Below are positions 2,783 to 59,472 of a DNA stretch of 64,000 nucleotides, piece after piece. A model generated the notes under the pieces. It searched no databases. It was not told the origin of the DNA and was given only the letters and a program-made list of their open reading frames with translations. The stretch comes from a virus (taxonomy: Duplodnaviria > Heunggongvirae > Uroviricota > Caudoviricetes): IMG/VR virus record IMGVR_UViG_2872147552_000001. One strand, given 5' to 3'. The translations under genes were made by a program, and so were the position numbers. Position 1 is the stretch's first letter. Every line of letters begins with the position of its first letter.

Positions 2783-2855
2783 TTCTCGCTCCTACAAAAA
2801 GGGTGGGCGTATAGCCCACCCTTTAACATAGATAATTACTTATCTACTTCACTGA

Positions 2856-3731
2856 TTAAATTTTTACATTGGTCAGTGCAGCGATAGCCTTATCGTGCTT
2901 ATTCGCCAGAGAGCAGTACCACTTCACACGGGTACGTACTGCGTCTTTGTTCTGTACAGTACCAATGTTTTCAACAACGATACCTGCGTTGTCGCCGCCA
3001 TACAGACCAGTAACGCCGTTCTCTTCTGACAGATGCAGGCAGTAGATGCTTGCTTTGCCAGAATCGGTCGGGATGAAGTCGTTGATGATGAACGGAACGC
3101 CGTTATGACACAGCATCGGACGACCGAAGTTCTCCATCATGATTTCAGACGGACCTACGTTTACTGTACGCAGCAGCGCACGGTAAGCACGCAGGTGCTC
3201 TGAACGCATCATGATGCAGTCAGCACCAAGATCTTTCACCGCATCGACCAGTTCGTCGAACATAGAGAAAGTCATAGATGCACCGGCGATATCGATCTTC
3301 TGATCTGCGTGCATCAGGCGTGGAATGCCGTCAAACGCCTTGTTGTTGGAGCTGGAGTCACCCAAAATCAGGTTGCGACGGAACGCACGAGCCAGACCTT
3401 TAACTTTCTGACGAACCTGAATAGCCAACTGGTTGTTGGTGTCGGCCATAGTGGTCGCCAGGAATTTATCAACGTCTACGTCACCAGCCAGAATACGCAG
3501 TTTCGCAACGCATTCTTCGAAGGTTGCTGCACCTTCAGGGATGGTGTCGTTAACGTCGATGAAGGTAGCTTCACTCAGCGTTTTTTCACGGTTGTACAGA
3601 TATGCCTTTGAATTAATTTTCATAAAAGGCAGGATGGCAAACAGGTCATCGCGATCGATGATAGTTTCGATCACACCCTGTTCAAGTTCGTTGTTAGACA
3701 GCTTTTCAGCTTCTTCACGCAGTAATGGCAT
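2856..3731 (-). CDS. major capsid protein (by position and size)
   Basis: 291-aa ORF between scaffold-like gene and Ig-like decoration gene in the order TerS-TerL-portal-scaffold-capsid. Confidence 0.55.
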   Translation of the reverse strand: MPLLREEAEKLSNNELEQGVIETIIDRDDLFAILPFMKINSKAYLYNREKTLSEATFIDVNDTIPEGAATFEECVAKLRILAGDVDVDKFLATTMADTNNQLAIQVRQKVKGLARAFRRNLILGDSSSNNKAFDGIPRLMHADQKIDIAGASMTFSMFDELVDAVKDLGADCIMMRSEHLRAYRALLRTVNVGPSEIMMENFGRPMLCHNGVPFIINDFIPTDSGKASIYCLHLSEENGVTGLYGGDNAGIVVENIGTVQNKDAVRTRVKWYCSLANKHDKAIAALTNVKI

Positions 3732-3756
3732 CTATCAATTCCCTTTGATTTAGATG

Positions 3757-4644
3757 TTACTTAAGTCCAATTTTCCCCAGACCGGAGGCCAACTTATCCA
3801 TAGTCGACTTGTTCTTCGGTTGGGATATTGTGTAGGTCGATTTGGAATGTGAGCCTACACCCTGCTTGGCTTCGCTACGCATCAATGCGTCAGCTTCCGG
3901 ATCTGCCCGCACAATGCGTTCAATCGCGGATTCAAACGGCAACGGCTTACCTTCACCGTCAACCAGAACAGCTCGTTCTTTGTGACCTGCCGGTTTGTCA
4001 TAACCCACTACGCTACCGTCTTCACCAACTTCAAAATGAGAACCGTAGATCACGCGGGCTTTTGCCGGGGTCATCAGAACTTTGTCACGTAGGAAGAGAG
4101 AGTTACTGAAGGAAGCGCCCACGGTCATCTCGACTAATTGAGATTTCAGTGATGCGTTTTCACTTTCCAGTGCTGCATAACGTTCGTCACGCTGTGCCAG
4201 CTCTGCCTGGTGTGCTTCGATCATCTGTTTTTTAACAGCATCGAACTCACCACGACGCTCCAGTTCAGCTTGCTCCGCCTCACGACGTGCGTTTTCTGCG
4301 GCCTGTTCAGCTTCTAAAAGCTGGCGAGCACGAGCCGGATCGATATCACCGTACTGAGCAAGCTGATCGGCCAATGTGCGCTCTTTCTCTTTGCGCTTCA
4401 TGTTCTCCTTCAGCAGTTCAGCACCAGCTTTCTTGGTTTTACGAAGTTCGGCCAGTAACTCTTCCTGAGTCATGCCAGCGTATTCGTCATCGCCCTTCGG
4501 CTGCTCTTTTTGTTCACCCTGTTTGTCAGGATCTTGTGTACTCTGCTCATTATCAGCAGCTACACCGCCAGCGCCTCCACGCTCATGCGCTTCAGCGACA
4601 TCCATCAGACCACGACGGGCCAAAAGCATTTGCCACAGATTCAT
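3757..4644 (-). CDS. scaffolding protein (coiled-coil, E/A/K/R/Q-rich)
   Basis: 295-aa highly charged helical sequence (ELLAELRKTKKAGAELLKENMKRKEKE...) between portal and capsid genes; AAGGAA RBS. Confidence 0.5.
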   Translation of the reverse strand: MNLWQMLLARRGLMDVAEAHERGGAGGVAADNEQSTQDPDKQGEQKEQPKGDDEYAGMTQEELLAELRKTKKAGAELLKENMKRKEKERTLADQLAQYGDIDPARARQLLEAEQAAENARREAEQAELERRGEFDAVKKQMIEAHQAELAQRDERYAALESENASLKSQLVEMTVGASFSNSLFLRDKVLMTPAKARVIYGSHFEVGEDGSVVGYDKPAGHKERAVLVDGEGKPLPFESAIERIVRADPEADALMRSEAKQGVGSHSKSTYTISQPKNKSTMDKLASGLGKIGLK

Positions 4645-4665
4645 AAAAATTCCTTTTGTTACTTA

Positions 4666-6240
4666 TCACTCGTTCTCTTGAGTAGATGAGTCCCCATTCC
4701 CTCGGGGTTGATCTTGCCCGCTTTCTTGGGCTGCACCACGATCATAAGTAAGTACTGACTTATTTTCAAGGGTATTTAGATCATTTTTTGGAGGAAAATT
4801 CAAGAGATCTTTATCAAATTCCTTTTTCATCGCCTCAGTAATGTTCGGGAAAATCTTCTCAATAAGCATTTCCATCTGGTGACGACGTACAGAGTCCGGT
4901 GCCTGAAGTAATGACAGTTTCTCGGCAACAGAAAATTCATCAGTAAGGCCACGAATATCGAAACTTTCTGGATACGCAATTAAAGAGTGGTCTTCGTCCA
5001 GATCTACCCCCATCCATTTCGCAACCAGTAGCATGATTTGGCGTTCAGCCCTTTCCAGACGCTCTGCTTTTGTGACAAGCAAGCTATTTACACGCTGGAA
5101 GTCATACATTTTTGCGGCACCAGATGAATTATCGATTCCCTGTGCGTTGTCCTGCTTCGTTCGCTCACCAGCTACACCAACTGAATGGTAGATTTCGTTA
5201 ATCACCGTCTTAATCGTAGTGATGATCATCTGAGCTTGTTTCGGGTCTGGTGACAGATAAAACGGCTGGTTTCCACCTTCAGAATCGTAGGTGAAGACTC
5301 GCTTTGTGCCCATTTCAAGCACTTTAGTGTGGTTTTCATCACCAGGTAAAAGCGACTGTACCGGTATAGCCAACTGGCTAAATGTCTGATCCTGAATAAT
5401 GGCATCAAGGTTTGACAGATAGTTTGCAACCGCACGATCAAGATAAGCGATATCATCGATCAACGATGGGCTGAAATACGGTGATTCACTTTCTCCAATA
5501 CAATCAACAGGAAACACAGGAACTACGCCGAGATTATGCTCACCGCTATCCTCTAAAATAACTTTTGCCTGACGGCGACCTGCTCCACCAGCGCCCTTCT
5601 TCACTTCCTCACGGAACAGATACCACTCGTTTTGTGTCCACAGACGATAACGTTGGTATTCCTGACCTGTAGAAGTAAAAGGATCTGCGTCATCACGAGC
5701 GACTTCCACAATTAACGCCCACAACATATTCCCGTCGTCGTCCCATGCCACATCCAGCATTTGCTGAGGTGAAATCCAGTAGGCGTAGGCGCGAGCATCT
5801 TTCTTTTTCTCGTCAGCTACTGACTCAACATCACCACTCATCGTGCTATCGACAACAACCCATATGCGACCGTAAATAGACGACTGCAAATCAATAGCGG
5901 CCATAAATGAGTCAATAGAGGCATTCTGGCGAGTCGCACGTTTCCAGAAATTGCGGATCTGCTCTGGTGCCTCTTCGATATTTCTATGAATGTCTTCTTT
6001 AAAGAGATATTTGTTGATGAGGTTTACCACCTCACGAGTGTGGTTGAAGCGATAAGCACGTTCAACTCGCTCCTTAAACTCCTGATCTCCCTCTTTAAAG
6101 TAACGAAAGATATTGTCTGTAAACCAACCACGCCCGCCAGCGTAAGTGCTGGCGAGGAAGTCCCAATGTTCTTTTTTCTTTTCGTATTCCGGGTGGCGTC
6201 GCGCCACCAGATCCTTAATTTGTTTGTCGTTCAATTCCAT
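4666..6240 (-). CDS. portal protein (by position and size)
   Basis: 524-aa ORF immediately downstream of the large terminase. Confidence 0.55.
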   Translation of the reverse strand: MELNDKQIKDLVARRHPEYEKKKEHWDFLASTYAGGRGWFTDNIFRYFKEGDQEFKERVERAYRFNHTREVVNLINKYLFKEDIHRNIEEAPEQIRNFWKRATRQNASIDSFMAAIDLQSSIYGRIWVVVDSTMSGDVESVADEKKKDARAYAYWISPQQMLDVAWDDDGNMLWALIVEVARDDADPFTSTGQEYQRYRLWTQNEWYLFREEVKKGAGGAGRRQAKVILEDSGEHNLGVVPVFPVDCIGESESPYFSPSLIDDIAYLDRAVANYLSNLDAIIQDQTFSQLAIPVQSLLPGDENHTKVLEMGTKRVFTYDSEGGNQPFYLSPDPKQAQMIITTIKTVINEIYHSVGVAGERTKQDNAQGIDNSSGAAKMYDFQRVNSLLVTKAERLERAERQIMLLVAKWMGVDLDEDHSLIAYPESFDIRGLTDEFSVAEKLSLLQAPDSVRRHQMEMLIEKIFPNITEAMKKEFDKDLLNFPPKNDLNTLENKSVLTYDRGAAQESGQDQPRGNGDSSTQENE

Positions 6241-6266
6241 TTGAATAACCTTAGATAATTACTTAC

Positions 6267-7523
6267 CTATCGAGAACCACCAAGAATAACACGGTTTTTG
6301 ACTGGATACCTACGATGTACTGGATAGCCCAATGCGTCTGCACTATGCTCAATGCCACCTGTCTTATCCATATCTCGTGTTCCAGGCTTGTAGATGACTT
6401 TTTCCAGTGAATCAATCAAATGCTTGCACTTCGGATCGATATACAGCCGGATATCTCCAGATGCGGTCATCAGCATTCGGTTAACAGCATTAACACGATC
6501 CGCAATTGGCGGGTGCTTTTTCGAATAATCGACACGTAAGAATCCCTTCTCTTTGAATATGTCGACGTCAGACTCCCCGCGAGCATGTTGGCGATAAGCA
6601 CCTGCCGGATCTGGAAATACCGTTATCTGTGATTTCCAGCGCCAGAAGCGTCTCTCAAGCTCATCACAAACCTCTGCCGTGTTAGAGGAAAAGAGCACCA
6701 ATTCATCAATTGCCCATAGCTCACCATTTGGCTGAGGTTGCAAAATTACTGAAGACATCGGGTCAATGTTGAAGTCCTGCCCTACCCATATAGGCAACCG
6801 AGGGTTGAACTGAAGCGGTTTTACATGCACGTTACGATCGAACGGGTAGTAAACGCGCCCGGACATGTTCTCAAAGCTCGCCAGGTACTCCTGAGCGAAC
6901 GATTTCGGGTCCATATCGTTCTTAGCAGCTTCAATTTCCGCCGTAGGTACAAACGGAGAATCGGCAGTTACAAACTGCCAGCTCTTCCACTGTCCCTTTC
7001 TTTGCAGCTCTACGTTCTGGCCTATAGTCCACAGTTTGTGAAATTCCGAGAAGCCTTTTGGCGTACCAATGATCAGTGCACCGCCGCGTGTCGATGAAAG
7101 AGTAGGTCGTAACACCTTGTACCAGGTGTCAGCCTTCATATCCTGAAATTCATCAAGCACTACAAAATGCAACGCTACGCCGCGCAGAGTGTCAGGCTTA
7201 TCAGCACCTTTGAGGGCGATCTCCGAACCGTTCTTCAACACGATTGTCATCGTGGTGTCGTTCTTTTTCCTAACCCACTTACGAGGCAGAACTTCCTGTA
7301 GATCGTCCCACAAAATCTGGCGAGCCATCTGGTAAGTAGGAGCGACATACCAGACCCTTTGCTTTTTTTCCTTTGCCGCCGCACGAATAATAGTGGAGAT
7401 CGACAACCGGGATTTTCCCCAGCGTCGACCAGCACAAACAACTTTAAATCGATGCGGAGACTGGAAGACTTTCATCTGTCCAGAATGCAGTTGCACAAGA
7501 CTGAGCGAGGACGGGATTGCCAT
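6267..7523 (-). CDS. terminase large subunit
   Basis: Walker A-like CAGRRWGKS near the N-terminus followed by nuclease-type C-terminal half; ATG overlaps TerS stop (TAATG coupling). Confidence 0.8.
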   Translation of the reverse strand: MAIPSSLSLVQLHSGQMKVFQSPHRFKVVCAGRRWGKSRLSISTIIRAAAKEKKQRVWYVAPTYQMARQILWDDLQEVLPRKWVRKKNDTTMTIVLKNGSEIALKGADKPDTLRGVALHFVVLDEFQDMKADTWYKVLRPTLSSTRGGALIIGTPKGFSEFHKLWTIGQNVELQRKGQWKSWQFVTADSPFVPTAEIEAAKNDMDPKSFAQEYLASFENMSGRVYYPFDRNVHVKPLQFNPRLPIWVGQDFNIDPMSSVILQPQPNGELWAIDELVLFSSNTAEVCDELERRFWRWKSQITVFPDPAGAYRQHARGESDVDIFKEKGFLRVDYSKKHPPIADRVNAVNRMLMTASGDIRLYIDPKCKHLIDSLEKVIYKPGTRDMDKTGGIEHSADALGYPVHRRYPVKNRVILGGSR

Positions 7524-8249: not shown

Positions 8250-8349
8250 AGGTCTGGGCATGTCTTATTAAGCCTGCTTCCGTATATATTTAATAAGTTA
8301 CTTATTATTTATATATACAGAAGCAGGTCTTTAAATAAGCTCCCAGACC
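8250..8349. repeat. nested inverted-repeat element, copy 1 (outer arms AGGTCTGGG/CCCAGACC, inner arms GCCTGCTTCCGTATATA/TATATACAGAAGCAGG)
   Basis: Long AT-rich palindrome seen directly in sequence upstream of the terminase operon; near-identical copy at 38751-38850. Confidence 0.6.
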
Positions 8350-8351: not shown

Positions 8352-8618
8352 TTACATCACCAGTAACTTCGCTTTGGCTCGACCTAAAGTGGTTAACCCA
8401 AGAGTTCGGCGGTGATAGCGATTGTCACTGCGTTGGCGCGTATGCCCTTTCTCCACCAGCCCCTTTTTTATCAGAGCGCGAATTGAGAACTGGATACTTT
8501 GCTTGGTTGTCTTGTACGGCAAAACTTCAAGCAATTCGTCCAGATCAAGTAAATGACCTCGCTCATAACCGAGGTTGAGCGTTTTGATGATGTCCTTTTG
8601 TTTATCGGTTAACGTCAT
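8352..8618 (-). CDS. small DNA-binding protein (winged-helix-like), hypothetical
   Basis: 88-aa basic ORF, AAGGA RBS; first gene upstream of the terminase. Confidence 0.35.
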   Translation of the reverse strand: MTLTDKQKDIIKTLNLGYERGHLLDLDELLEVLPYKTTKQSIQFSIRALIKKGLVEKGHTRQRSDNRYHRRTLGLTTLGRAKAKLLVM

Positions 8619-10409: not shown

Positions 10410-11074
10410 GCAGCCATCTCCCCGGAAGAGATCTTCTCCGCATATGCCACAAATGCGTCTACCCCGCTTTCTCCTGTCATTTCTTCCATGTGGGCAAGCA
10501 AATCACCAACAACAATGGCAGAGCCAGCAGGGAGCGTTTTAAAGCCCAATACGTCGACAACACGTACTTCTTCCGCTGCAACTTCACGACTGATCTCGGT
10601 GTGTTCATCCTTCTGTCGTTTAGTTTCTTCGCCAAGATCGATAACTAGCGAGTCGGTGTCCATTTCTTCTGTCATACTGCCAACGAGAACATTCAACTCA
10701 CGCTCTTCAAAGCCGAAAACCTCGATATCGTCCAGAACAAGCGACTCAAGCTCTTTCTGTAGCTTAATTGCATCGTAATCAATGCTGGCTAGTCGGTTAT
10801 CTTCAAGGCGCTTCGCACGAACCTCGTCATCACTCAGATCATCGCGAACAATAACCGGCACGCGCTCAAGTCCAGCAAAAATTGCAGCCTCACGGCGGCC
10901 GTGGCCAGTAATAATTACGTCGTTCTTATCGACCGTAATTGGCTGGTCAAATCCTCGCTTTTTAATGGCTGCGGCCAGATCTCGGATCTGCTGTTCATCA
11001 TGCTTTTTGGCATTCATCTCATAGGGAATAAGATCTGCCGGGTCGCGATATACGATTTCAAACTTTTTGGTCAT
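10406..11074 (-). CDS. ParB-like nuclease-domain protein 1
   Basis: ParB/Srx N-terminal domain motif (ITGHGRREAA); start moved to ATG at 11074 with AAGGAG RBS, overlapping stop of the next gene. Confidence 0.6.
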   Translation of the reverse strand: MTKKFEIVYRDPADLIPYEMNAKKHDEQQIRDLAAAIKKRGFDQPITVDKNDVIITGHGRREAAIFAGLERVPVIVRDDLSDDEVRAKRLEDNRLASIDYDAIKLQKELESLVLDDIEVFGFEERELNVLVGSMTEEMDTDSLVIDLGEETKRQKDEHTEISREVAAEEVRVVDVLGFKTLPAGSAIVVGDLLAHMEEMTGESGVDAFVAYAEKISSGEMAA

Positions 11075-11754
11075 TACATACGCTCCTTGTAGTAGTCGAC
11101 CAGCCACACCAGAGCCTCACCAGCGTTCTCCATTTCATTACCGGTGTTAATAGCCTGCTCTTTGATGATGTTTTTTATGGTTTCTGCAACACGATCTGAC
11201 GCATCGAAAGTTACTTTGAAGCGCATGGTCTGATGTTCCGCCCCCACACGTTCGGTTTTCTCTCGTTTGTCGGTATCGACAGGCTCATCACTACCACGAG
11301 ACAACGCCTCCAGTGCTTCAAGGTCGATTGCCGCCTCTTTTGCTAAAACCATCGAGATTTCGTCGTCATACGGGGCGATTTCAGACAGTTGATAGTCAAG
11401 TTCTGACTGAATTTCTTCAATGAAGCGTTGCAATGCGATTTGGTCGTCTTCACCGTATCGCTCGTTGTCCACCAGTGACATCTGTTTAGCTACGACATCG
11501 CTAATTTTGCCCACAGAAAGCACCGGAACCGTTGAAATTCCTTGCTCAATAGCAGCACGCCAGCGATGTTCGCCGCCGAGGATTTCAAAAAATCCATCTT
11601 CAAGTTCACGAGCCAAAATTGGCTTAAAAAAGCCCAATTTTTCGATAGAACCTTTCAGTTTTTCAAAATTCTGCGCACCAACCGAATTGGTGTTCCAGGT
11701 ATTCGGGCGAAGGTTGGCAACATCAACCTGCAAAATCGTGATTTTTACATCCAT
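11074..11754 (-). CDS. ParB-like nuclease-domain protein 2
   Basis: ParB/Srx motif ILGGEHRWRAA; track start 11772 is GTG, ATG at 11754 used. Confidence 0.55.
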   Translation of the reverse strand: MDVKITILQVDVANLRPNTWNTNSVGAQNFEKLKGSIEKLGFFKPILARELEDGFFEILGGEHRWRAAIEQGISTVPVLSVGKISDVVAKQMSLVDNERYGEDDQIALQRFIEEIQSELDYQLSEIAPYDDEISMVLAKEAAIDLEALEALSRGSDEPVDTDKREKTERVGAEHQTMRFKVTFDASDRVAETIKNIIKEQAINTGNEMENAGEALVWLVDYYKERM

Positions 11755-11836
11755 TTTATTGCTACAATCCACTAAGTAATCACTTACTTATTATAATAGC
11801 CAAATAACATACAAAAGGCACTAAGGAAAGAGGTTT

Positions 11837-13398: not shown

Positions 13399-13677
13399 AT
13401 GAGTGAAAAGAAAACAACTTACTGTCAGGTAGCATTGTCTGATAAGGCCAATGACAAACTTGGAAAGTTTCAAGTGAAACTAAAAGAAAAAAATATCAAA
13501 ATGTCTAAGGCTGAAGTCATAAATACCATTCTGGAACAATTGACAATGGCCGACTTTGACAAGGTTATATCTTCTGTCGGGGCTTCCGCTAAGACTCGTG
13601 AGAAAATCATGCGTATCTATGAGAACTCTAATATGACAAAGGAAGATCTCGAAACGCTATTAAGCAGATTAAAATAA
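13399..13677 (+). CDS. small DNA-binding protein, possibly ribbon-helix-helix
   Basis: 92-aa ORF whose N-terminus (KTTYCQVALSDKANDKLGKF) has a beta-strand-then-helix pattern like RHH proteins; coupled to helicase stop. Confidence 0.35.
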   Translation: MSEKKTTYCQVALSDKANDKLGKFQVKLKEKNIKMSKAEVINTILEQLTMADFDKVISSVGASAKTREKIMRIYENSNMTKEDLETLLSRLK

Positions 13678-14172: not shown

Positions 14173-14697
14173 ATGACAACCAAAGATATTACCTACGGTA
14201 TCCAAGCTGAACTCTGGCCGCGAGATTACACTAACGTTGAAAAACTACTGATGTTCTGGCGCAGAGAACAAATTCCTGTAAGGGTCACTCTCGAAGATGG
14301 CCAGGCGTTTTGCATGTACGTTTATGGCCTCATGCCATCTCGTAACAAAGTTGACCTTTGCCCAGCCCCTTTTGACAAAGAAAATCGTATAAGGCTCCCA
14401 CTTGAACGCATTAGTACAATTGAATCAGGTGTGGTTGACAGTATCGCTCACGATTTCAAAGGTCGACTAACAGTTCACCCTGATTATGTCGATAATCGGC
14501 CATCACGCCGCGATTTTTTTGCAATTTGCAACCAAGCCTACAAAGCAAACAAATCTATAAGGGTGTACATGGCGGATGGCCGTGAAATTGAGGGGGTGTC
14601 AGCAGGCGCAGATGCTTGTCAGGTTACACTACGTGTCGAGAACGGTAGAAAAATAGTTGTTTTGTTCGATTGGGTTGAACGAATTTTGCCTTTTTGA
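14173..14697 (+). CDS. hypothetical protein with two Rof-like repeats (tentative)
   Basis: Track ORF 14095..14697 trimmed to ATG at 14173 just after the upstream stop; repeats VRVTLEDGQAF and IRVYMADGREIEGV faintly resemble the Rho-inhibitor Rof fold. Confidence 0.35.
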   Translation: MTTKDITYGIQAELWPRDYTNVEKLLMFWRREQIPVRVTLEDGQAFCMYVYGLMPSRNKVDLCPAPFDKENRIRLPLERISTIESGVVDSIAHDFKGRLTVHPDYVDNRPSRRDFFAICNQAYKANKSIRVYMADGREIEGVSAGADACQVTLRVENGRKIVVLFDWVERILPF

Positions 14698-17565: not shown

Positions 17566-17601
17566 AATAACAAATTGTTTTCTTGTTGGTGTTAATTATC
17601 G
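17566..17601 (-). promoter_or_regulatory. early promoter/operator module (GATAAT ... AGAAAACAA-N-TTGTTT palindrome)
   Basis: Conserved element about 20-40 nt upstream of the start codon; one of at least 13 copies in the window. Confidence 0.45.
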
Positions 17602-17722
17602 TTGTACGAATAAGGCGTCAAAGTGGAAAGTTGCGGTAGCCGGACGGGAACAGGTGGGTTTGTCGGTTGCCTGGAGGTAAGAGGTTGGTGTTTTTAGCCT
17701 GCGGGAAACAGGATGGTCATTT

Positions 17723-17746
17723 AAGGCCACCAGCATTGGTGGCCTT
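17723..17746. terminator. hairpin AAGGCCACCAGCATTGGTGGCCTT (intergenic stem-loop family)
   Basis: Perfect 9-bp stem; contains the reverse complement of the Chi octamer; no strong T-run. Confidence 0.4.
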
Positions 17747-17751
17747 AATCT

Positions 17752-18039
17752 TTAGTGGAGCAGACCGATGTCGATGGTATCCCCTGAATCATCCACACGG
17801 ATCATCAGCATGGCGAAGGCGTTTAGTGGATAACTGGCGTGCCATTCAGGGAAGCGGTCATCTCGCATGAAGTCGGCAATGTCGTAAACGCATCCCTCAA
17901 AGTGGAAGAATCGCGTGCTTACCTGCTCGTCATATTCCACATGATCCATTTCTTGCTGTTCTGTTTCCGGCAAGTCCAGCCATGATTCAAGGAATACATT
18001 TTGTGCTTTAGGGGTAATGGTGAAATCAGTCATGAGCAT
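17752..18039 (-). CDS. hypothetical early protein
   Basis: Track ORF 17752..18165 trimmed to ATG at 18039, because the upstream part of the track ORF runs through the conserved promoter module. Confidence 0.45.
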   Translation of the reverse strand: MLMTDFTITPKAQNVFLESWLDLPETEQQEMDHVEYDEQVSTRFFHFEGCVYDIADFMRDDRFPEWHASYPLNAFAMLMIRVDDSGDTIDIGLLH

Positions 18040-18052
18040 ATCCTCACTGCGT

Positions 18053-18086
18053 AAACATGTTGTTTTCTTGTTGGTGTAATTATCGC
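18053..18086 (-). promoter_or_regulatory. early promoter/operator module
   Basis: Same GATAAT/AAACAA-N-TTGTTT architecture as at 17566. Confidence 0.45.
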
Positions 18087-18368
18087 AGTGTAGATAAGGC
18101 ATAAAAGAAGTTAATACAGGCTGAATACACAAGAAAGGTTCTGGAAGTTGATAGCCAGGTTTCAAACTAACCTTCGGTTATTAAAAGTCATTTAAGACCA
18201 CCAATGCTGGTGGCCTTAATAATTATCGACCGATTACGCTAAGGATCTTTTCCTCAACTGATTTGTTGTTGCGACTAAACTGCCTTGCGTATCTGATGAC
18301 AGAAGAGGCGTTTTGCTTTCTGACCATCTCGGCTCTTTCCTTCAGGCGTTTCTTGAAATCGCCCATAT

Positions 18369-18743
18369 TTACCACCAGGCGCAGAAGGTCAGTCTGTTAT
18401 TGTGAAAGTCGTGGTTCTTAATCAGATCTTCCACAATCTCTTTCAACTCCCCCACATCATGCCAGTAACCTTCATCGTACTCCTGACTGCCGAAGAAAAA
18501 ACCTTCCCGGGTAGGCAAGTACTCTTCGCAATTACTTTCGTTTATGTGCATCAAATGAGCCTTCAGAAAACAAATGTCATTCATCGTTAATTCTAAAAGC
18601 TCACAATTTTCGACTTCACCTACGTTGCGCTCCATCCACCCAACGAGCGCATTGAACTTACGGAAGTAAGCAACCTGCTTTCTGGATGCCTCGTTATTCA
18701 GATCGTTTTTAGGCTGTGTCTCGATATAGATATCAAGTCCCAT
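18369..18743 (-). CDS. hypothetical early protein
   Basis: Trimmed to ATG at 18743 with AAGGAAA RBS; conserved motif copy at 18797-18817. Confidence 0.45.
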   Translation of the reverse strand: MGLDIYIETQPKNDLNNEASRKQVAYFRKFNALVGWMERNVGEVENCELLELTMNDICFLKAHLMHINESNCEEYLPTREGFFFGSQEYDEGYWHDVGELKEIVEDLIKNHDFHNNRLTFCAWW

Positions 18744-18860
18744 GATGGTTTCCTTATTAAGTTGCTTCAGTGAAATCATTTTCACAAATCAGATAAGGCA
18801 GAAAACAAATTGTTATCGGGCATAAGAAAATGGCGCGGTTTACGCGCCATTTAAAGAGGA

Positions 18861-19256
18861 TTAAGCGAATACGCTTTCAGGGATTAAGGTGTCGGCAGGA
18901 ATGCCAGAGGTAATGCGCAGGCCGTACTGACCAATCCAGGCAGTGTTGGTATTCAGGTTGGAGGCGAATACGGTGTCAACCATATTCATCATTGGTTCAA
19001 ACACCTCTTCATCAACCTGGCGGAAGTAGTTCTCGATTTTCAGCAGCAGCGGGTCAGTTGCATCGAAAATAGACTGGTATTGAATCGCGTACTCGCCGCC
19101 GGAGGCATCACCTTTACGCACGATCGTACTGGCCTGGACTTCGGCACCAGTTTCGGTGTTGTACGTAACAACGGTGATTTTTGCCACATTCTTACCTTCG
19201 GCGGTTTCAGAGGCATAGTAAACATCAACTGTCAGTTTTTCGCGTTTAACGGTCAT
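18861..19256 (-). CDS. hypothetical early protein
   Basis: Trimmed to ATG at 19256 with GGAGAG RBS. Confidence 0.45.
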   Translation of the reverse strand: MTVKREKLTVDVYYASETAEGKNVAKITVVTYNTETGAEVQASTIVRKGDASGGEYAIQYQSIFDATDPLLLKIENYFRQVDEEVFEPMMNMVDTVFASNLNTNTAWIGQYGLRITSGIPADTLIPESVFA

Positions 19257-19320
19257 TTCACTCTCCGTAGTGTATTGGTTATTTTTATATTCTATGATCG
19301 TAAGTATGTACTTACAATAC

Positions 19321-19348
19321 AAAAAAGCCCCGTAAGGATGGCGGGGCT
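19321..19348 (-). terminator. rho-independent terminator
   Basis: Minus-strand hairpin AGCCCCGCCATCCTTACGGGGCT followed by TTTTTT. Confidence 0.55.
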
Positions 19349-19382
19349 GTCGTACTGTCGACTAATTACCACTTGCACATTA

Positions 19383-19694
19383 TCAGGCTATTGCCATCAC
19401 TGATGCTCTCTGAATTTCTTGCTGGGCCACGCGGTTAACTTCCATCAAAGCCAGTTCGAGCTGATGTTCCGGCCACATTCTTTGAAATGCCATCCAGCCT
19501 TTTCCACGCTGGCGACGAACATTCATTACATAACGAGTAAAGGTGTTTTTATCGAAAGACACCGCTGTTTCACGGAACAGACGAATAGAGGTTCCATTGG
19601 CAACGATGTCCAGCAAAGTTAATTGAGCAACCAGCGCAGGCTTCTCTTTTCTCTTCTGGTCTTTGTCCAGACCAAGAACCAATGATTTTTTCAT
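19383..19694 (-). CDS. hypothetical early protein (basic)
   Basis: Trimmed to ATG at 19694; promoter module copy at 19706-19740. Confidence 0.45.
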   Translation of the reverse strand: MKKSLVLGLDKDQKRKEKPALVAQLTLLDIVANGTSIRLFRETAVSFDKNTFTRYVMNVRRQRGKGWMAFQRMWPEHQLELALMEVNRVAQQEIQRASVMAIA

Positions 19695-19848
19695 CACAAC
19701 TCCGTAAACAACTTGTTTTCTCAATGGCGTAAATAATACCAGTAAGAAAACGGCTACAAAGCATAATGATCAGGTGCATGATCGATATGCAGGTTCTTCC
19801 CTGCGGCTACATATTAAGTTAAGCCAGCAATGCTGGCTTTGGTTGGGG

Positions 19849-20178
19849 TTACTCGAATACTTCAAGAAACTCCTGAACGTCCCAATGCTGGACGAGGTGA
19901 AGATAGACCTTAGAAATCACGTCATTTTCGCTATCGCATGTGAAGTAGTACTTCTGGCTGCGGTTGTATGTGTCCACACAAAATTCGCTCATATCCATAA
20001 AGTCAGCATCTTCACCCATGTCGCAAATCATCAAAGCAGGTGCGTCATCACGAGTCATCAGCTCAAGCACCCACCGCGAATTGATCAGAGTGGAAGACCA
20101 ACCTTCTAACTCATAAAACTGATCAAACTCTTTTTGAGTTAATTTCTTGATTTGGTTGATGTCGATATTTGCAAACAT
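19849..20178 (-). CDS. hypothetical early protein (acidic)
   Basis: Trimmed to ATG at 20178 with AAGGA RBS; promoter module copy at 20191-20224. Confidence 0.45.
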   Translation of the reverse strand: MFANIDINQIKKLTQKEFDQFYELEGWSSTLINSRWVLELMTRDDAPALMICDMGEDADFMDMSEFCVDTYNRSQKYYFTCDSENDVISKVYLHLVQHWDVQEFLEVFE

Positions 20179-20540
20179 AAAGCAATCCTTAAACAACTTG
20201 TTTTCTTGATGGTGTTATTATCGCAATAACGCACAGGCGAAAAAGGATTTTATTCCGGTGAATGTGGTTTTGGCAGTGAGTTTTCAGGTTCAGTACCGAG
20301 TACACTTTTTACATTATTCTGATTTAGTGGCCGAAGGTGGCTGGTGGGCAGAATAATCATCTCCCCGAAAACCTACTGAAATCGATTGTGACCCGTTGGC
20401 TGTCTGGCACAATTACGCTGTAGCTGGGCATTCAGAGGGAGTCCAACGGTAAGTTAGTCCGCCTGCACGTGAGCGCCTCTCTTCTTCCCGCACATTACAG
20501 GTGGGTAGCCGCAACTCTCCCTCACGCTATACCGGTACGC

Positions 20541-20672
20541 CGCCGTTCCTGAACCGGCATCGAGCCTTTTCCCGAAATCCACACAGGCAACTCGACCGTT
20601 TCCCTGAAAACCTCCAGCCGTTCCCCGAAGGCAACCCAGCCGTTTCTGTAGCGGGATGCAGCTTTTTCCCTG
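20541..20672 (+). repeat. direct-repeat array B (6 copies of GCCGTTCC/CCGTTTCC-type motif)
   Basis: GCCGTTCCTGAACC, CCTTTTCCCGAAATCC, ACCGTTTCCCTGAAAA, GCCGTTCCCCGAAGG, GCCGTTTCTGTAGCG, GCTTTTTCCCTGTATGG within about 130 bp. Confidence 0.55.
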
Positions 20673-21731
20673 TATGGACCGAAGGCTGACCGTAGGGGTG
20701 TTACGGGGGATAAAATCAGGAGTTGAATAAATACGAAAAAGGAGGCGACACCCCTCCTTCCCTCCCCACTTATACATACCTGGCTTCTTCGCTATACATG
20801 TTGTGTTTTATTCGTGTTTTATCTGTCTCAACCTCTCTATGGACGTTAACACTCACTCCTTCCAGAACGTTCTATACGGCGACTAATTCTGTTGGTGAAT
20901 TGGGTGTGTTGTTCTCTCTGTCGGTGTATGTGGTTTCGTTCGTTTTGCGGTGGTTCTTCTATGGGGTGTTCTCGTCGTTTTGGTGATTGTTCTTCTCCGT
21001 GTATGGAGTAATGGCAGGTGGGCGATTCCTTTCGTTGTTGTGTTTGAGTTGTTTGTCTGGAGTGTGAAAGGCTTTTGTAGTTATTCGTGTATTGGGTAAT
21101 GGCGTTTCCCGTGATTGTTCTGTTTCGTGTCTTTTGGGATTGAGAGAAGCCTTGCGGTTACAGGCTTCGTTGGGGGTTCAGTGATTCTGGTGTTTCTTCG
21201 CTGTTTGGGTAATGGCGTGTCGTGGGTATCGCGCGTATGAATGTTTTCGGATTGCCTGTGAAAGTTAGGTTGGTTGTCCGGTAGCCTGGGGAGAAGAGGT
21301 GGGTCTTTTCGGTAGCCTGCCATAAAGAGGTTGGTTGTTTTTGGAAATGGCATATGTGTTATTTAGTTGTTTTGTTATGCCTGAAAATAAGTTGTTTATA
21401 TGGTTATGTAACGCAACGGGAACGATTTTGAGCGTGTGTTTTTGTTGGTAGTGTGTTGGGTCGTCTGTGGTGAAAATTGGACGCTGTGGCGCTGTCTGCT
21501 GCGTAGAATTACGGGTATAAGCAGTGATGTGTGAAAACGTCAATTTTTTAGACCAAATAGGGTGAAAGCGTTGATGTTTCGTTGATCTGTTATTTAGTTG
21601 TTTTCTTGTTTGTATAAACAACTATAACCTATTGATATTTAAGGATGTGATTGCGGGTATGGAAGGGGAGTAGTGGCGATCAACGGATTCTTATAGAAAA
21701 GAATCAAATTGTGACCGCCATTATCAATGTT

Positions 21732-22466: not shown

Positions 22467-22511
22467 TTCTTTGATAATCCTAAAAACAAACTACCAATGC
22501 TTTAATATCTG

Positions 22512-22811: not shown

Positions 22812-22820
22812 TTCAACCAC

Positions 22821-40443: not shown

Positions 40444-40601
40444 GTAAGTCTCCTTCTGTTTGGTTACATTTGCGTTTCGATGGCTACATTTTGACTAAAC
40501 CTATCAGGCGGAAAAGTATTAAATACAGGCAGGAAATGATTGAAAGGCGACTGTTCTTTAAAAGAAAGCCTACTTTAAACTTTTTAAAGTAGGCTTTTGT
40601 T

Positions 40602-41649: not shown

Positions 41650-42294
41650 CTAATGAACGGTCACTCGGCCACAGAACCGGTTTTCTATCTTTTCTACAGC
41701 GTTATCTAGCATTCTCATCACTGATCTGGCTCTTGCTTCAACCGTGCGATATCGGTTGGAAACGACGAAGGTTTGCAGATCCCCCCTTTGCGGATGCAGG
41801 TGAATTTTTGTCAGTTCCCCGCACATCAACGCATCAATACGAGCGACATACAGACGGTCTAATGATGCTCGTTGTGATCGCAAGTAATCTCGCTCTGAGA
41901 GAGCGACTCCCGGGCGTAGGCCAGCAATGGCGTTAAAGTTTGAAATAGCAGTTTTGTGGCAAAACTTTTCGATATCGAGGGCTAACTCAATACACCGATC
42001 TTCATTTGTATGGCCGACCAAATCCAACGTGTAGGCCATAACATCAGCAGGTGTGCGATCGATAACAAAGCCTTCAACACCACGTGTAAGTAGCTCTATA
42101 TGCTTTGCTATTTCCATTTGAATCTGAAGCCGCTCATATAGAGGCATAGACTCACCTACTCGAACACCGAGGCGGCTCATCAAACTTCCGACACCAGCAT
42201 CCACGTAAGGGATTCCGTAATGTTTGTCGATATATTTAGCCAGGGTTGTTTTCCCACTGCCCTGAGCACCAGTGATCCCAATCCGGTAATCCAT
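41650..42294 (-). CDS. P-loop nucleotide kinase (possible dNMP/thymidylate-type kinase)
   Basis: Walker A GITGAQGSGKTTLAKYI at N-terminus, DRT segment resembling the kinase DRY/DRX motif; embedded among nucleotide-metabolism genes. Confidence 0.5.
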   Translation of the reverse strand: MDYRIGITGAQGSGKTTLAKYIDKHYGIPYVDAGVGSLMSRLGVRVGESMPLYERLQIQMEIAKHIELLTRGVEGFVIDRTPADVMAYTLDLVGHTNEDRCIELALDIEKFCHKTAISNFNAIAGLRPGVALSERDYLRSQRASLDRLYVARIDALMCGELTKIHLHPQRGDLQTFVVSNRYRTVEARARSVMRMLDNAVEKIENRFCGRVTVH

Positions 42295-42770
42295 TACGAC
42301 CTTCTGTATACGATCTGCGAAAAGCCAGGCTCTTCCTCGCTGGCTCGTTGGGTAAAAACTGTTTCAACAGGCACAAAGCCTAAATTACGCATCATGCTTG
42401 CCGGGAAGAATGCATCGGCGTTTGGCACATCAACGCCGATGTGGGAGAGCCAAATCTCTTCAACATGCGGCATGAATAGCGAGTAAATTTGTTCCCCGCC
42501 AATCACCCACACAGGCTCTGGTAATCGCAACACATCATCCACACCAGCAGGGTAGAATCCATTTGGTACAAAGCCATGAGAGCGCGTCAAAACGAGGTTA
42601 TGACGCTCTGGAAGAGGGCGTTTGAGACTTTCCATCGTTTTACGCCCCATAACGACAGTGGCGTTTTTGGTGAGTCTCTTAAATAGCTTCAGATCGGTAG
42701 AACAACGCCAGGGGAGTTCATTCGCTATGCCGATCTCATAGTTACGGCCAACAGCAGCGATCATCTTCAT
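42294..42770 (-). CDS. dihydrofolate reductase
   Basis: MKMIAAVGRNYEIGIANELPW... with the DHFR-type N-terminal M-I-A-A and GRKT motifs; 158 aa. Confidence 0.8.
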   Translation of the reverse strand: MKMIAAVGRNYEIGIANELPWRCSTDLKLFKRLTKNATVVMGRKTMESLKRPLPERHNLVLTRSHGFVPNGFYPAGVDDVLRLPEPVWVIGGEQIYSLFMPHVEEIWLSHIGVDVPNADAFFPASMMRNLGFVPVETVFTQRASEEEPGFSQIVYRRS

Positions 42771-43180
42771 TTGCTCACCTCATAGATGACCGGTCGATGG
42801 TGAGAGTCGGCTAAAGCGGCACGGAGTCGAGGATCGTGCACCAGCGCAGCGATAAGCAGATCGCCTTTATGCTCCGCTAATGTGCGCTTAATATGCTTCT
42901 CATAACTGGTGCCATTCGGTACGAGATGAAGCCAGTCATAATCAACGCCAAAATCTTTCAGCCATCGTTTAGTTGGCGCTTCAAGAGTTTCAGAGCGGCT
43001 ACTGATAAGCACCACTTCAGCCCCTGAGCGAGCAAAACCACGCAACATACGGCTGGTGGGGAAAATGAGTTCATCACCGGCAATGAGCTGGCCTGCATCC
43101 GCGTCAGATACTGATTTACGATGGCTGGCATTTGCCAGCACACCTTCAATTTCGCATAAGACATACATACCTCTTGCCAT
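42767..43180 (-). CDS. hypothetical protein (possible degenerate HAD-type phosphatase)
   Basis: Track ORF trimmed to internal ATG at 43180 to avoid a 110-nt overlap with the thymidylate synthase gene. Confidence 0.3.
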   Translation of the reverse strand: MARGMYVLCEIEGVLANASHRKSVSDADAGQLIAGDELIFPTSRMLRGFARSGAEVVLISSRSETLEAPTKRWLKDFGVDYDWLHLVPNGTSYEKHIKRTLAEHKGDLLIAALVHDPRLRAALADSHHRPVIYEVSK

Positions 43181-44285: not shown

Positions 44286-44455
44286 AAAAACCTCACAAAG
44301 ATAAGTAATTACTTATTCATCATGTGAGTTTACATTCATTGAGAGAACAAGACCAGACAGATAAAAAAATGGTGGCCATAGGCCACCAAAACGAATAGTC
44401 ATTCCAGAGTTTTATTACGCATGTTAAATATACATAGATAGATAACTACCTACAA

Positions 44456-48961: not shown

Positions 48962-49034
48962 GTATCACCAAATAAAGAGGGCCACTATATTTAGTGGCCC
49001 ATGTTAATAGATAAGCACTTACCTATCAATGAGA

Positions 49035-53578: not shown

Positions 53579-53832
53579 GTGTTTTTCCTTTGTGGTTATT
53601 TTGATACAAATTCTAAGAGCAATGAGGAGGTAAACAACTATGCATAACGGTATGTTAGGAATGAAACTAGCGCCTTAATATACAAAATTTATAAGTAAGT
53701 ATATACCTATTTATCGTGGCGCAACTTTGCTTGTCTGTATGACTAAAAATAAGACAGGATCACTGTAGAACGCTATGAGAGCTATTTTGAGGGGGCGTAG
53801 ATTCTATCTACGCCAATATACGATCTGGAGGG

Positions 53833-57488: not shown

Positions 57489-57527
57489 GATAGGTAGATA
57501 CTAACTTATATAAATTTTACTGTAAAC

Positions 57528-58359: not shown

Positions 58360-58375
58360 GAACTTTTTAGGGGAG

Positions 58376-59206
58376 TTATTTCACTGTAATGAAAGGAGTG
58401 TTAGCCCCTTGAGTCATGTACTGCGGTAACTGGCCATTCCATTTATTGATGGCTTCCAGTTCCATAACGTTCGGGTTTTGACGCAGAGCTTCACCGCGCA
58501 GACGAATGGCGTCTGCTTCTGCTTGCGCACGAGCACGGATAGCATCAGCTTCACCATTAGCCTGTTCACGTAGCATATTCGCCTCAGCTTTACGTTGTTC
58601 AACTTCCTGCTGACGTTGCAGAGTACGCTGGTTAGCCGTTACTTTGGCGTTGATAGATTCTATGACGGTTTTTGGGTAATCAGGCTTTCCAACCCATGAC
58701 AGGCTCAGTACCTCAATACCAACCGGAGACATCTCTTTCTGAATATCTTTCAGTGCGTTGTCCAGCAATTGCGCCTTACCACCGTCGATAAATGAGTCAG
58801 TGGTCATACGGCTGGCCAAACGGTTTAGAGAGTCGGCAATTTTCTGACGCAGATCTGATTCGGTGATATCGTCTACGCCTTTGCGATAGGTCTGGAACAC
58901 CGTCGTTACCTTGTCACGATTAACCAGATACGCAACGCCAATTTTGTGACCAATAGCAGTACCGTCACTCATCTGGAATGTGAATGGCTCGTCGTAGGTC
59001 TTCATTTGTTTGAAGGTCGGGAATACGTAAAGTTCGGTGTTAAGACCTGTCCATTGGCGACCAACGCCAACCACTTCACCAATCCCTTTGTCTTCACCTA
59101 ATTTGTTTACTTTGATGCCAACGTATCCAGGCTCCACGCGATCGCAGCCAGTAAGACCCATTGTGCAAATAGCCGCCAGAGCAACTGCAAGTAAACCTTT
59201 CTTCAT
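58376..59206 (-). CDS. SPFH/band-7 (prohibitin-like) domain lipoprotein
   Basis: Lipobox LTGC after signal peptide; SPFH-type core and Ala/Glu/Arg/Gln-rich coiled-coil C-terminus (QRKAEANMLREQANGEADAIRARAQAEADAIRLRGEA). Confidence 0.65.
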   Translation of the reverse strand: MKKGLLAVALAAICTMGLTGCDRVEPGYVGIKVNKLGEDKGIGEVVGVGRQWTGLNTELYVFPTFKQMKTYDEPFTFQMSDGTAIGHKIGVAYLVNRDKVTTVFQTYRKGVDDITESDLRQKIADSLNRLASRMTTDSFIDGGKAQLLDNALKDIQKEMSPVGIEVLSLSWVGKPDYPKTVIESINAKVTANQRTLQRQQEVEQRKAEANMLREQANGEADAIRARAQAEADAIRLRGEALRQNPNVMELEAINKWNGQLPQYMTQGANTPFITVK

Positions 59207-59209
59207 TAC

Positions 59210-59410
59210 TTATTTCCCCTTTGCTTTGATTAATGAGTTGATAAACTTACGACCAGCAATAAGACCGATTACAGGAGCACCAAAACCAACGATAACTCCA
59301 AACATGACGGCTAAATCACTCTTGGTAGAAATCAGCGACGGAACCAGTAAACCGTAGATGAGAGCCACTGAAAGGCCTGTGGCTACTGCCAATAGATAGA
59401 TTTTGATCAT
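59210..59410 (-). CDS. small two-helix membrane protein (NfeD-like partner candidate)
   Basis: 66-aa hydrophobic ORF 3 nt upstream of the SPFH gene; AGGAAAACAC RBS. Confidence 0.45.
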   Translation of the reverse strand: MIKIYLLAVATGLSVALIYGLLVPSLISTKSDLAVMFGVIVGFGAPVIGLIAGRKFINSLIKAKGK

Positions 59411-59472
59411 GTGTTTTCCTATGTGGTTGTTATGCGAAAATAATAAGTAAGTGCTTATATATTTTCAAGAGA

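Follow-up and report, generated by a model that had tools for sequence, protein, structure and literature searches.

In the annotation of phage P1, operators of the C1 repressor lie on promoters in different positions, Oref in the spacer of P2ref and Ossb after a −10 element. KorB of plasmid RK2 has 12 dispersed OB operators and represses many operons. In phage P22, the operator of Arc shares sequence with the Pant/Pmnt promoter region, and open-complex formation is hindered (PMC2724298). Well-studied phages place their late genes under positive control (PMC10695390), and a repressor acting directly on head, tail and lysis genes would thus be out of the ordinary. SSU5-like elements have been described as the largest supergroup of phage-plasmids (n = 268; PMC9600943), and when a capsid-region sequence was searched against PLSDB, 663 plasmids matched, from Klebsiella, Escherichia, Enterobacter, Yersinia and Salmonella; no description of their lysis–lysogeny control was found in the searchable literature. 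The stretch of DNA analysed here (64,000 nucleotides, hereafter the window) comes from an SSU5-like phage-plasmid of E. coli, and it carries ~15 copies of a 20-bp palindrome that is a real, conserved DNA control site. On balance, these palindromes are probably operators of an element-encoded homodimeric, sequence-specific repressor, the binding of which is predicted.

The consensus is a perfect 20-bp palindrome, ATAGGTAAGT|ACTTACCTAT, with dyad symmetry through its centre. Searching the window for ATAGGTAA-N4-TTACCTAT with up to 3 mismatches gave 13 matches against 0.19 expected (100 shuffles, maximum 2), and a scan with a position weight matrix (PWM) returned 18 positions scoring at least 14 bits, against 0.13 in Markov controls. 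The ten palindromes of the original prediction all exist, with coordinates right to within 0–2 nt, and sites at 4744–4763 and 57490–57509, together with a weaker one at 44434–44453, are additions to that list. Sequences resembling the motif at 8286–8305 and 38803–38822 sit centrally within a different long inverted repeat. The proposed location at transcription-unit boundaries holds, with a distance to the next start codon of 1–129 nt rather than the 10–110 nt first given; of the sites, one falls within a gene and three run over the stop codon of the gene before them. Scatter inside coding regions had been named as the pattern that would speak against the motif; instead, in the annotated relative Cyrano, 24 of 27 matches (up to 4 mismatches) are intergenic in a genome that is 87% coding (binomial p = 1e-18). 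No site of at least 9 bits was found by the PWM scan within 11.8–32.2 kb (the ‘early module’), which has its own motif, GAAAACAANTTGTTTTC; a regulon separate from that motif, as had been claimed, is supported. With its A+T-rich sequence and no T tract, the palindrome fits neither an intrinsic terminator, which would have a G+C-rich stem and then a run of T, nor a REP-like extragenic repeat devoid of positional logic; true terminators adjoin the sites instead of lying within them. LexA boxes show no enrichment (2 found, 0.9 expected).

Several sites lie among the structural genes. The palindrome at 2828–2847 (minus strand; 25 bits) is located between the major capsid gene (2856–3731) and an Ig-like gene (1862–2782), and 4 nt downstream of it there is a terminator-like hairpin (~2795–2823); from a weak promoter at this site, GTGAAG-16-TATGTT, transcription would begin within the 5′ arm of that hairpin. 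The site at 4744–4763 (minus strand) lies within the portal gene, at its 3′ end, and 99 nt before a DUF6651/scaffold-like gene (3757–4644); it fills the spacer of TTGAAA (4769–4764)-17-TATGAT (4746–4741), a promoter match of 13.1 bits that exceeds the 99th percentile. It is kept in L026, L079, SSU5 and Drgb1 with lineage-specific half-sites, and expression in Cyrano in macrophages at 6 h, which bears on this site, increases in the order portal, hyp4, MCP. The portal site at 6251–6270 (minus strand) overlaps the TerL stop codon, with the portal ATG (6240) 10 nt downstream; promoter scoring revealed no convincing promoter there, and orthologues with cores of the A, B or C type are present in ~40 distinct relatives, the most divergent of which share 69% portal identity. 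The site at 11772–11791 has no assigned strand and occupies the divergent region between a ParB-like operon (ATG 11754, minus strand) and a UvsW-like helicase operon (11837, plus strand). TATTAT/TATAAT abuts this palindrome on its plus side, and its orthologues are found in Cyrano (105107), Drgb1 (14254) and pCP102 (33128).

The remaining sites, all on the minus strand, are located beyond the early module. Those at 32277–32296 (27.4 bits) and 37246–37265 overlap the stop codons of a DUF4942 gene and an RNase H-like gene, respectively, 41 nt upstream of an Ead/Ea22-like ATG (32235) and 129 nt upstream of the ATG of a hypothetical gene (37116). The site at 39462–39481 has 0 mismatches and is followed after 11 nt by the Dam methyltransferase ATG (39450); the promoter TTGCCA (39508–39503)-17-AAAAAT (39485–39480; 9.7 bits) ends at motif position 2, and the site therefore covers its −10 element and start. 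At 44297–44316, the palindrome lies 11 nt upstream of the ThyX GTG (44285), and a terminator (44388–44370) separates it from the weaker second copy. The nrdA site (49007–49026; 1 mismatch), upstream of the nrdA ATG (48961), lies within TTGATA (49029–49024)-17-TAACAT (49006–49001; 11.8 bits), after which comes a terminator hairpin (49000–48979); the promoter is conserved in SSU5, Drgb1 and pCP102. The site at 53691–53710 (26.5 bits) lies 112 nt upstream of an sbcD-like ATG (53578), and RNA falls by 2–3.6 log2 units across this boundary in Cyrano lysogens. A further site (57490–57509) ends 1 nt upstream of a 59-aa membrane open reading frame (57488–57312) and is combined with TTTACA (57526–57521)-17-TAGTAT (57503–57498; 10.2 bits), so that here the −10 element is in the centre of the palindrome. 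Finally, the site at 59443–59462, preceded by a terminator (59498–59478), is found 32 nt upstream of an NfeD-like/SPFH operon (ATG 59410) and fills the spacer of TTGAAA (59468–59463)-17-TATTAT (59445–59440; 13.1 bits).

Approximately 30% of sites are embedded in sigma-70 core promoters of sense orientation, either in the 17-bp spacer or over the −10 element and start, and for 10 of 31 sites the promoter score is above the 99th percentile of the background. A score of at least 8 bits is reached at 21 of 72 sites in the sense direction versus 3 of 72 in the antisense direction (Wilcoxon p = 2e-4), with the palindrome’s own antisense side serving as control; similarly, TTG is found upstream of the palindrome in 12 sense versus 2 antisense cases. 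An independent promoter scan also places TTGAAA-17-TATTAT and TTGATA-17-TAACAT on sites, with the promoter of the NfeD-like/SPFH operon (10/12) as its top match in 16 kb. The register varies, with at least three arrangements (−10 element at motif position 18, 21, −4, 7 or 12), and a consensus −35 element is present at 3–4 orthologous loci. At the remaining sites, the promoter is weak or lacking; at those of portal, ThyX and several other genes, which have no convincing promoter, a Shine–Dalgarno sequence directly follows the palindrome. The −10-like flank TAnnnT occurs in 37 sense and 37 antisense cases; part of the ‘promoter’ signal is thus the extended palindrome itself, and a directional −10 element at motif positions 18–23 was rejected as a general feature, since the same hexamer is equally common on the mirrored side.

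Expression data were taken from an RNA-seq study of LF82/Cyrano (PMC9928086, S1 table), which concerns a relative ~95–97% identical to the present element, in bulk cultures, and was designed for another question. In the LB lysogen, 18 of 19 sites are followed by first genes at log2 2.3–4.3 (floor 2.32), the one exception being CYRAN_34, which reaches log2 5.3 behind a weak site (34730). Even downstream of near-consensus promoters, genes stay at the floor, and RNA levels fall across sites in lysogens. In macrophages at 6 h, RNA steps up by +2.5 to +3.65 log2 units exactly at sites with predicted strong promoters, including the orthologues of 57490–57509 (+3.65) and 59443–59462 (+3.6), both with zero reads in LB. 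A general step-up test over all sites in the macrophage data is not significant (p = 0.34); only the sites with predicted strong promoters rise. The nrdA promoter, although strong on paper, displays no induction in macrophages.

Palindromes are found at orthologous positions across the SSU5-like family. Three types of half-site can be distinguished by their core, namely AAGT in E. coli, Klebsiella and SSU5 (A-type), ATTT in Pectobacterium Drgb1 and L079 (B-type), and AGTT in Enterobacter pCP102 and L067–70 (C-type). The variant is specific to a lineage and consistent throughout each genome, and this genome-wide switch points to a sequence-specific, element-encoded dimer that co-evolves with its sites. 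The dimeric DNA-binding regulator of the original prediction hence finds support in the central dyad, the lineage-consistent half-sites and the lack of a G·U bias.

The likeliest candidate for this binder, put forward tentatively, is an XRE-family helix-turn-helix (HTH) protein that is encoded outside the window, beside the integrase (CYRAN_45 of Cyrano; 98% identical counterpart in CP053388.1). CYRAN_45 is expressed in lysogens. In every A-type variant (56–100% identity), the promoter of its gene, TTTACA-16-TAATAT, carries the core palindrome, with CGGTAAGCACTTACC directly after it. The recognition helix of CYRAN_45-type proteins reads LSLIK throughout the A-types, VSMLK in the B-type and LSNIK in the C-type, a co-variation with the operator that comprises one B-type and one C-type genome. 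No S24 cleavage domain was found in the candidate repressor, and in SSU5, a lytic phage, the sites are kept and the XRE repressor gene is absent. A secondary candidate is a 92-aa protein (13399–13677, plus strand), the orthologue of CYRAN_117, which is expressed in lysogens (114 fpkm in LB); a ribbon-helix-helix fold for this protein was discarded, as it has no Pfam match. PDB sequence searches with two candidate binders yielded nothing useful.

The pattern of sites, promoters and RNA is explained better by a repressor operator than by an activator site, and we infer both the repressing sign of the regulation and the identity of the binder. Where the operators sit on or next to sigma-70 promoter cores, a bound repressor would block RNA polymerase, either from within the 17-bp spacer between the −35 and −10 elements or from a position over the −10 element and start; at sites without a promoter, it would probably stop read-through. 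In this way, ~20–25 scattered lytic transcription units, with functions in nucleotide metabolism, recombination, head, tail and lysis, could be kept silent during plasmid replication, and loss of repressor activity would derepress all of them together.

The alternative that survives best, and that had been favoured in the original prediction, is an activator site, that is, a middle or late promoter element at which a positive phage factor would bind in the spacer and replace the −35 element, as Lpa does in P1. We regard this as unlikely, but it accounts for a number of observations: most sites have no −35 element, TAnnnT is found at motif positions 18–23 in 51%, head, tail and lysis genes, normally positively controlled, belong to the regulon, and the RNA step-ups at sites are compatible with either sign of regulation. 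In addition, P1 late promoters have the arrangement AAGT(G/T)ACTT-4 nt-(−10), similar to AAGTACTT, and one of them, LPmat, also has a −35 element. This resemblance is, however, not conserved, since B-type genomes have ATTT in place of AAGT. The P1 −22 box is separated by 4 nt from the −10 element in seven of eight annotated late promoters (9 nt in LPhot), whereas the distance between palindrome and −10 element is not fixed, the registers differing by at least 3 bp. Moreover, several promoters match the consensus at 10 of 12 positions with a 17-bp spacer and should fire unaided, but have zero reads in lysogens, and at the repressor gene’s own promoter the site covers the transcription start, a repressing position. 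No Lpa homologue was detected by tblastn in five genomes (E > 0.5) or by PHROGs/Pfam searches of ten candidate proteins. A candidate binder for an activator site would be an 88-aa putative winged-helix protein (8352–8618, minus strand; CYRAN_123 orthologue) encoded just upstream of terS, with a match to LexA_DNA_bind (E = 0.07) that falls below threshold; its putative recognition helix is constant across operator types, and it was rejected as binder on these grounds. The ‘middle/late’ temporal class with its implied positive control is thus not upheld in the form proposed, given varying registers and silent near-consensus promoters, nor is the class a clean one, as the regulon mixes genes for replication and nucleotide metabolism with those for head, tail and lysis.

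The palindromes could also be silencing or partition sites of the window’s own ParB-like protein (11074–11754, minus strand), acting in the manner of KorB, which we consider very improbable. This protein does have a ParB_N domain (E = 3e-13), its start is preceded by a site, at 17 nt, in every lineage, and promoter-less sites would suit repression at a distance or spreading. Yet its expression in lysogens does not rise above the floor (log2 2.32), precisely when silencing would be needed. The gene belongs to an operon continuing into the terminase genes and lacks a neighbouring ParA, and the protein therefore looks like a packaging or nuclease accessory factor. The palindrome is not known to resemble parS or OB sequences.

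FljA is reported to act post-transcriptionally, and an FljA-like protein is encoded at 14179–14694 (plus strand; PF03614, E = 1e-80). That the palindrome is an RNA hairpin (8-bp stem, 4-nt loop) at the ribosome-binding site, serving for processing or as an FljA-like translational operator, is nevertheless scarcely credible: several sites do lie 1–17 nt upstream of start codons with the Shine–Dalgarno sequence directly 3′ of the palindrome, and all are in transcribed orientation between co-directional genes, but mismatches on the sense strand do not favour G·U over A·C (57 versus 67; p = 0.42), the central pair 10/11, unable to pair in a hairpin, is complementary in 47 of 72 sites (65%), stem pair 4/17 is complementary in only 35 of 72 and non-complementary in most B-type sites, the sequence itself is conserved beyond pairing, and the −35 elements are oriented and conserved. 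On these statistics, the palindrome acts as duplex DNA rather than as an RNA hairpin.

Returning to the repressor, the operator, the regulon map and the candidate protein provide a handle for predicting induction and immunity groups, and may help to explain the switch to virion production in phage-plasmids that carry resistance genes. They also offer a source of tightly repressed promoter parts, and allow a test of whether late genes of a large temperate phage can be expressed in the absence of positive regulation. In its strongest form, the idea is that a single palindromic operator, with a single small XRE-type repressor, exerts direct control over essentially all lytic units of the ~108-kb element, with late genes that need no activator and with the A, B and C variants as immunity types; this full version is doubtful. 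If it were true, the immunity types would decide which SSU5-like elements can coexist or superinfect, and this would concern carriers of resistance genes as well as relatives of Yersinia pMT1 and Salmonella Typhi pHCM2.

With lambda CI, 434 and P22 C2, the proposed system shares dyad operators, which here overlap core promoters at part of the sites, and negative autoregulation; in lambdoid and other XRE repressors, too, operator and recognition-helix variants define immunity types. In contrast to the 2–6 operators gathered in one immunity region of lambdoid phages and P22, single operators are spread here over ~100 kb and would act directly at ~20 or more units. Dispersal of this kind is seen with KorA/KorB of IncP plasmids, where a palindromic operator in ~10–12 or more copies across the backbone co-ordinates operons, although the proteins and sequences are different, and KorB acts partly at a distance, whereas many of the present sites are inside core promoters. 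The P1 Lpa −22 box is likewise a short inverted repeat in the promoter spacer near the −10 element, has a core (AAGTnACTT) resembling that of the palindrome, and is present in ~11–25 copies before morphogenesis and lysis genes, mostly without a −35 element; it differs in its length (9 bp versus 20 bp), and in the SSU5-like element the spacing to the −10 element is variable and some promoters have a consensus −35 element.

The closest parallel is P1 C1. In both cases, a plasmid prophage of ~100 kb has many single operators scattered genome-wide that overlap sigma-70 promoters in variable register (in the spacer, after the −10 element or on the −35 element), convincingly so at ~30% of the SSU5-like sites; the targets include ssb, dam-type and recombination genes, and the repressor gene, for the SSU5-like element that of the candidate, has its own operator. 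By contrast, there is no C1 homologue in five SSU5-like genomes (tblastn, no match with E ≤ 1), and the asymmetric 17-mer of P1 is replaced by a symmetric 20-bp dyad, the perfection of which implies a symmetric dimer, probably of the XRE-HTH type. Furthermore, head, tail and lysis units use Lpa in P1, whereas those of SSU5-like elements carry the palindrome. Thus, the kind of system is already known from the dispersed C1 operators of P1, and the SSU5-like palindrome regulon would be a new member of it.

By megablast, the window is an SSU5-like phage-plasmid of E. coli, with 97.8% identity to 'phage CMS-2020a' (CP053388.1) and ~94–97% to PhiR41_1 and Cyrano (pLF82, OV696614); the gene map was taken from the manual annotation of the latter. 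Relative to Cyrano the window is reverse-complemented, which puts almost every gene on the minus strand.

The original prediction had described ten copies of a palindrome at operon boundaries; all ten were found, displaced by 0–2 nt at most, and the observation is confirmed. Once aligned, the sites give a perfect 20-bp palindrome with the half-sites ATAGGTAAGT and ACTTACCTAT. The pattern ATAGGTAA-N4-TTACCTAT has 13 matches in the window with ≤3 mismatches (0.19 expected), and a symmetrised position weight matrix (PWM) scores 18 positions at ≥14 bits, where Markov controls give 0.13. Sites were added at 4744–4763 (within the portal gene, at its 3′ end), 57490–57509 and, more weakly, 44434–44453, and two look-alikes (8286 and 38803) were set aside: each is the A+T-rich middle of another, long inverted repeat. 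Equal scatter into coding regions, set beforehand as the refuting outcome, is not seen: 24 of the 27 matches in Cyrano (≤4 mismatches) are intergenic in a genome that is 87% coding (p = 1e-18). With TAG and TAA triplets in its sequence, the palindrome takes in the stop codons of the terL, DUF4942 and RNase H-like genes (6267–6269, 32296–32298 and 37262–37264), so that operators and coding ends overlap tightly there.

In a set of eighty IMG/VR portal loci, three sites are kept down to 69% portal identity: one between terL and portal, one within the portal 3′ end and one after the capsid gene. Whole-genome scans revealed ~27 sites of the window's type (A, core AAGT) in SSU5, the variant ATAGGTATTT and AAATACCTAT (type B) in the Pectobacterium plasmid Drgb1 at orthologous positions (ParB, portal-internal, primase, SPFH, sbcD, nrdA and dam), and ATAGGTAGTT and AACTACCTAT (type C) genome-wide in the Enterobacter plasmid pCP102. 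The outer ATAGGTA/TACCTAT is invariant across types, and positions 8–9 and their mirror positions change jointly in every site within one genome. Such a joint switch is the signature of a sequence-specific, element-encoded dimer co-evolving with its sites.

A sigma-70 PWM scan placed 10 of 31 sites above the background 99th percentile. Recurrent architectures include a −35 (TTGAAA, TTGATT) adjoining the motif with the −10 at motif positions 18–23; a −35 TTGATA overlapping positions 1–3 with the −10 at 21–26; and a −10 ending at position 2, with the palindrome over the transcription start. As the site is palindromic, its antisense side serves as an internal control: promoter scores of ≥8 bits occur at 21 sense versus 3 antisense sites (Wilcoxon p = 2e-4), and an upstream TTG at 12 versus 2. 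TAnnnT at positions 18–23 is equally frequent on the mirrored side (37 versus 37) and is therefore partly an extension of the palindrome. An independent scanner predicted TTGAAA-17-TATTAT (59468–59440, the top match in 16 kb), TTGATA-17-TAACAT (49029–49001) and TTTACA-17-TAGTAT (57526–57498). Terminators lie immediately upstream of one palindrome (59498–59478) and immediately downstream of another (49000–48979); for sites 2828 and 49007, transcription is predicted to begin within the 5′ arm of the hairpin that follows, and this hairpin would stop incoming upstream transcripts but not those initiated at the site. No convincing sigma-70 promoter was found at about two-thirds of sites, including portal and ThyX, and at these promoter-poor sites a Shine-Dalgarno sequence directly follows the palindrome.

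Expression was read from a supplementary table of PMC9928086, which gives RNA-seq values per Cyrano gene in LB, medium and macrophages. In LB, expression of the first gene behind a site is at the floor or close to it, also for those with near-consensus promoters (CYRAN_56 and CYRAN_60, 2.32, no reads; MCP and nrdA, both 2.9); CYRAN_34, moderately expressed in all conditions, is the exception. In all lysogen conditions except macrophages at 6 h, RNA tends downward across site boundaries (mean step −0.2 to −1.0 log2), and steps are unusually low in condition B6 (upper-tail p 0.996). In macrophages at 6 h, RNA steps up exactly at sites with strong predicted promoters (Cyrano 9018, +2.5; 57446, +3.6; 59399, +3.65; and 3527, portal < hyp4 < MCP). 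These step-ups, together with silence in LB, indicate that transcription starts at the strong-promoter sites and is silenced in the lysogen. The most abundant lysogen transcript by far (~7000 normalised reads, ~700x background) is CYRAN_43 (Cyrano 40268–40822 (−), outside the window), which encodes a 184-aa protein with no assigned function (phrog_28788); its abundance may point to an sRNA or to a maintenance role.

Promoters with 10 of 12 consensus matches and a 17-bp spacer should fire unaided yet are silent, so a repressor is needed, and the palindrome is the sole conserved element overlapping them. We therefore lean towards the palindrome being the operator of a lysogeny repressor, a prediction we hold with somewhat better than even confidence. 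That it is instead an activator site, modelled on the Lpa-dependent late promoters of phage P1, is the main alternative and an unlikely one: although the P1 late-promoter box AAGT(G/T)ACTT resembles the core AAGTACTT, its distance from the −10 is 4 nt in all but one of the eight P1 late promoters read (LPhot, 9 nt), whereas spacing is variable here; B-type genomes replace the core with ATTT; and no Lpa homologue was found in five genomes, nor any homologue of the P1 lysogeny repressor C1. The original prediction is partly supported: a sequence-specific, dimeric, element-encoded regulator is upheld by half-site co-switching, and the positive control implied by its middle/late class is weakened by spacing, core change and the lack of Lpa.

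An RNA hairpin is disfavoured. Over 72 sites scored in sense orientation, G·U pairs (57) and A·C pairs (67) are similarly frequent (p = 0.42), the central dinucleotide, whose bases could not pair if a hairpin formed, is self-complementary in 47, and pair 4/17 is complementary in only 35; the palindrome is therefore read as duplex DNA, which disfavours the window's FljA-like protein acting on RNA hairpins. The full-length homologue of FljA ('repressor of phase-1 flagellin') at 14179–14694 (+), unexpected in a phage-plasmid, is kept in SSU5, Drgb1 and pCP102; its Cyrano orthologue matches PF03614 (E = 1e-80), with a weak Hfq-like match at the C-terminus. A host factor as binder, and chance, are ruled out by the genome-wide co-switching.

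For the predicted repressor, the best candidate is CYRAN_45, a 128-aa XRE/HTH_19 protein encoded next to the integrase, expressed in lysogens and encoded outside the window; the relative closest to the window has it at 98% identity. Its recognition helix reads ..LSLIK.. in all A-types, LSNIK in one C-type genome and VSMLK in one B-type genome. Upstream of the gene, every A-type variant (56–100% identity) carries TTTACA-16-TAATAT followed directly by CGGTAAGCACTTACC, a core palindrome over the transcription start, as would be expected for autorepression. SSU5, a lytic isolate, lacks the gene yet retains the sites. An integrase/XRE/divergent-gene module lies between tRNA genes and cobT in all plasmid-borne relatives examined and is missing from the type phage SSU5 at 41776–42761; SSU5 may be a derivative locked into lytic growth. 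The small divergent gene, CYRAN_46 (Cyrano 42826–43038 (+)), rises from log2 4.3 in LB to 10.8 in macrophages at 6 h alongside a subset of site-controlled genes, although virions are not made there, a pattern resembling partial derepression short of the full lytic programme. Other candidates are weaker: a putative winged-helix protein of 88 aa encoded upstream of terS (putative recognition helix invariant across operator types), a ParB-like protein (not expressed in lysogens) and a 92-aa lysogen-expressed protein (13399–13677; no recognised DNA-binding domain).

The early module, said in the original prediction to lack the motif, is indeed free of it between 11.8 and 32.2 kb and carries a separate repeated palindrome, GAAAACAANTTGTTTTC. 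Its ~6–10 copies (17569–31123) take the form GAAAACAA-N-TTGTTTTC followed by a TTGnTGGTGTTATTAT-like promoter sequence (for example 17569–17594, 18054–18079, 20192–20217, 22826–22851, 26786–26850 and 31059–31123), often adjoin GGCCAC...GTGGCC terminator hairpins, and presumably are operators of a second regulator; one copy in pCP102 precedes a cobT-like gene. Tandem 28–31-nt repeat pairs such as TTGTCGGTTGCCTGGAGGTAAGAGGTTGGTGTTTTT occur twice in this module (17660–17723 and 21275–21341). A LexA-box-like CTGTTCATTTATACAG (26710–26725) lies immediately upstream of a umuD/LexA-like S24 gene (26302–26691, −), strongly expressed in Cyrano and more so in macrophages (log2 7.2 to 12.2). The long inverted repeat GCCTGCTTCTGTATATATAAATAA...ATATACGGAAGCAGGC, whose A+T-rich centres mimic the motif, occurs between a small DNA-binding gene and terS (8270–8325, the linearisation point of the Cyrano record) and between dam and the next gene (38775–38840); it could be a bidirectional terminator or a packaging or recombination site. 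The methionyl-tRNA synthetase gene (22973–25135 (−), by Cyrano and PhiR41_1 annotation), the oppositely oriented MinD/Mrp-like ATPase gene adjoining it and, at another place in the genome, a cobT/cobS pair are unusual siphovirus cargo.

The searchable literature yielded no description of the motif or of regulation in the SSU5 group. The closest parallel is P1, whose annotated C1 operators, in the P2ref spacer and after the P2ssb −10, share the palindrome's variable register. Unlike in P1, the proposed operator is a symmetric 20-mer, the repressor is probably of the XRE type, and neither C1 nor Lpa is present; unusually for a dispersed P1-type operator regulon, this one extends to head, tail and lysis units. 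The operator variants look like immunity types. The palindrome set would be a dispersed phage repressor regulon of the P1 type, familiar in kind and built from other parts.
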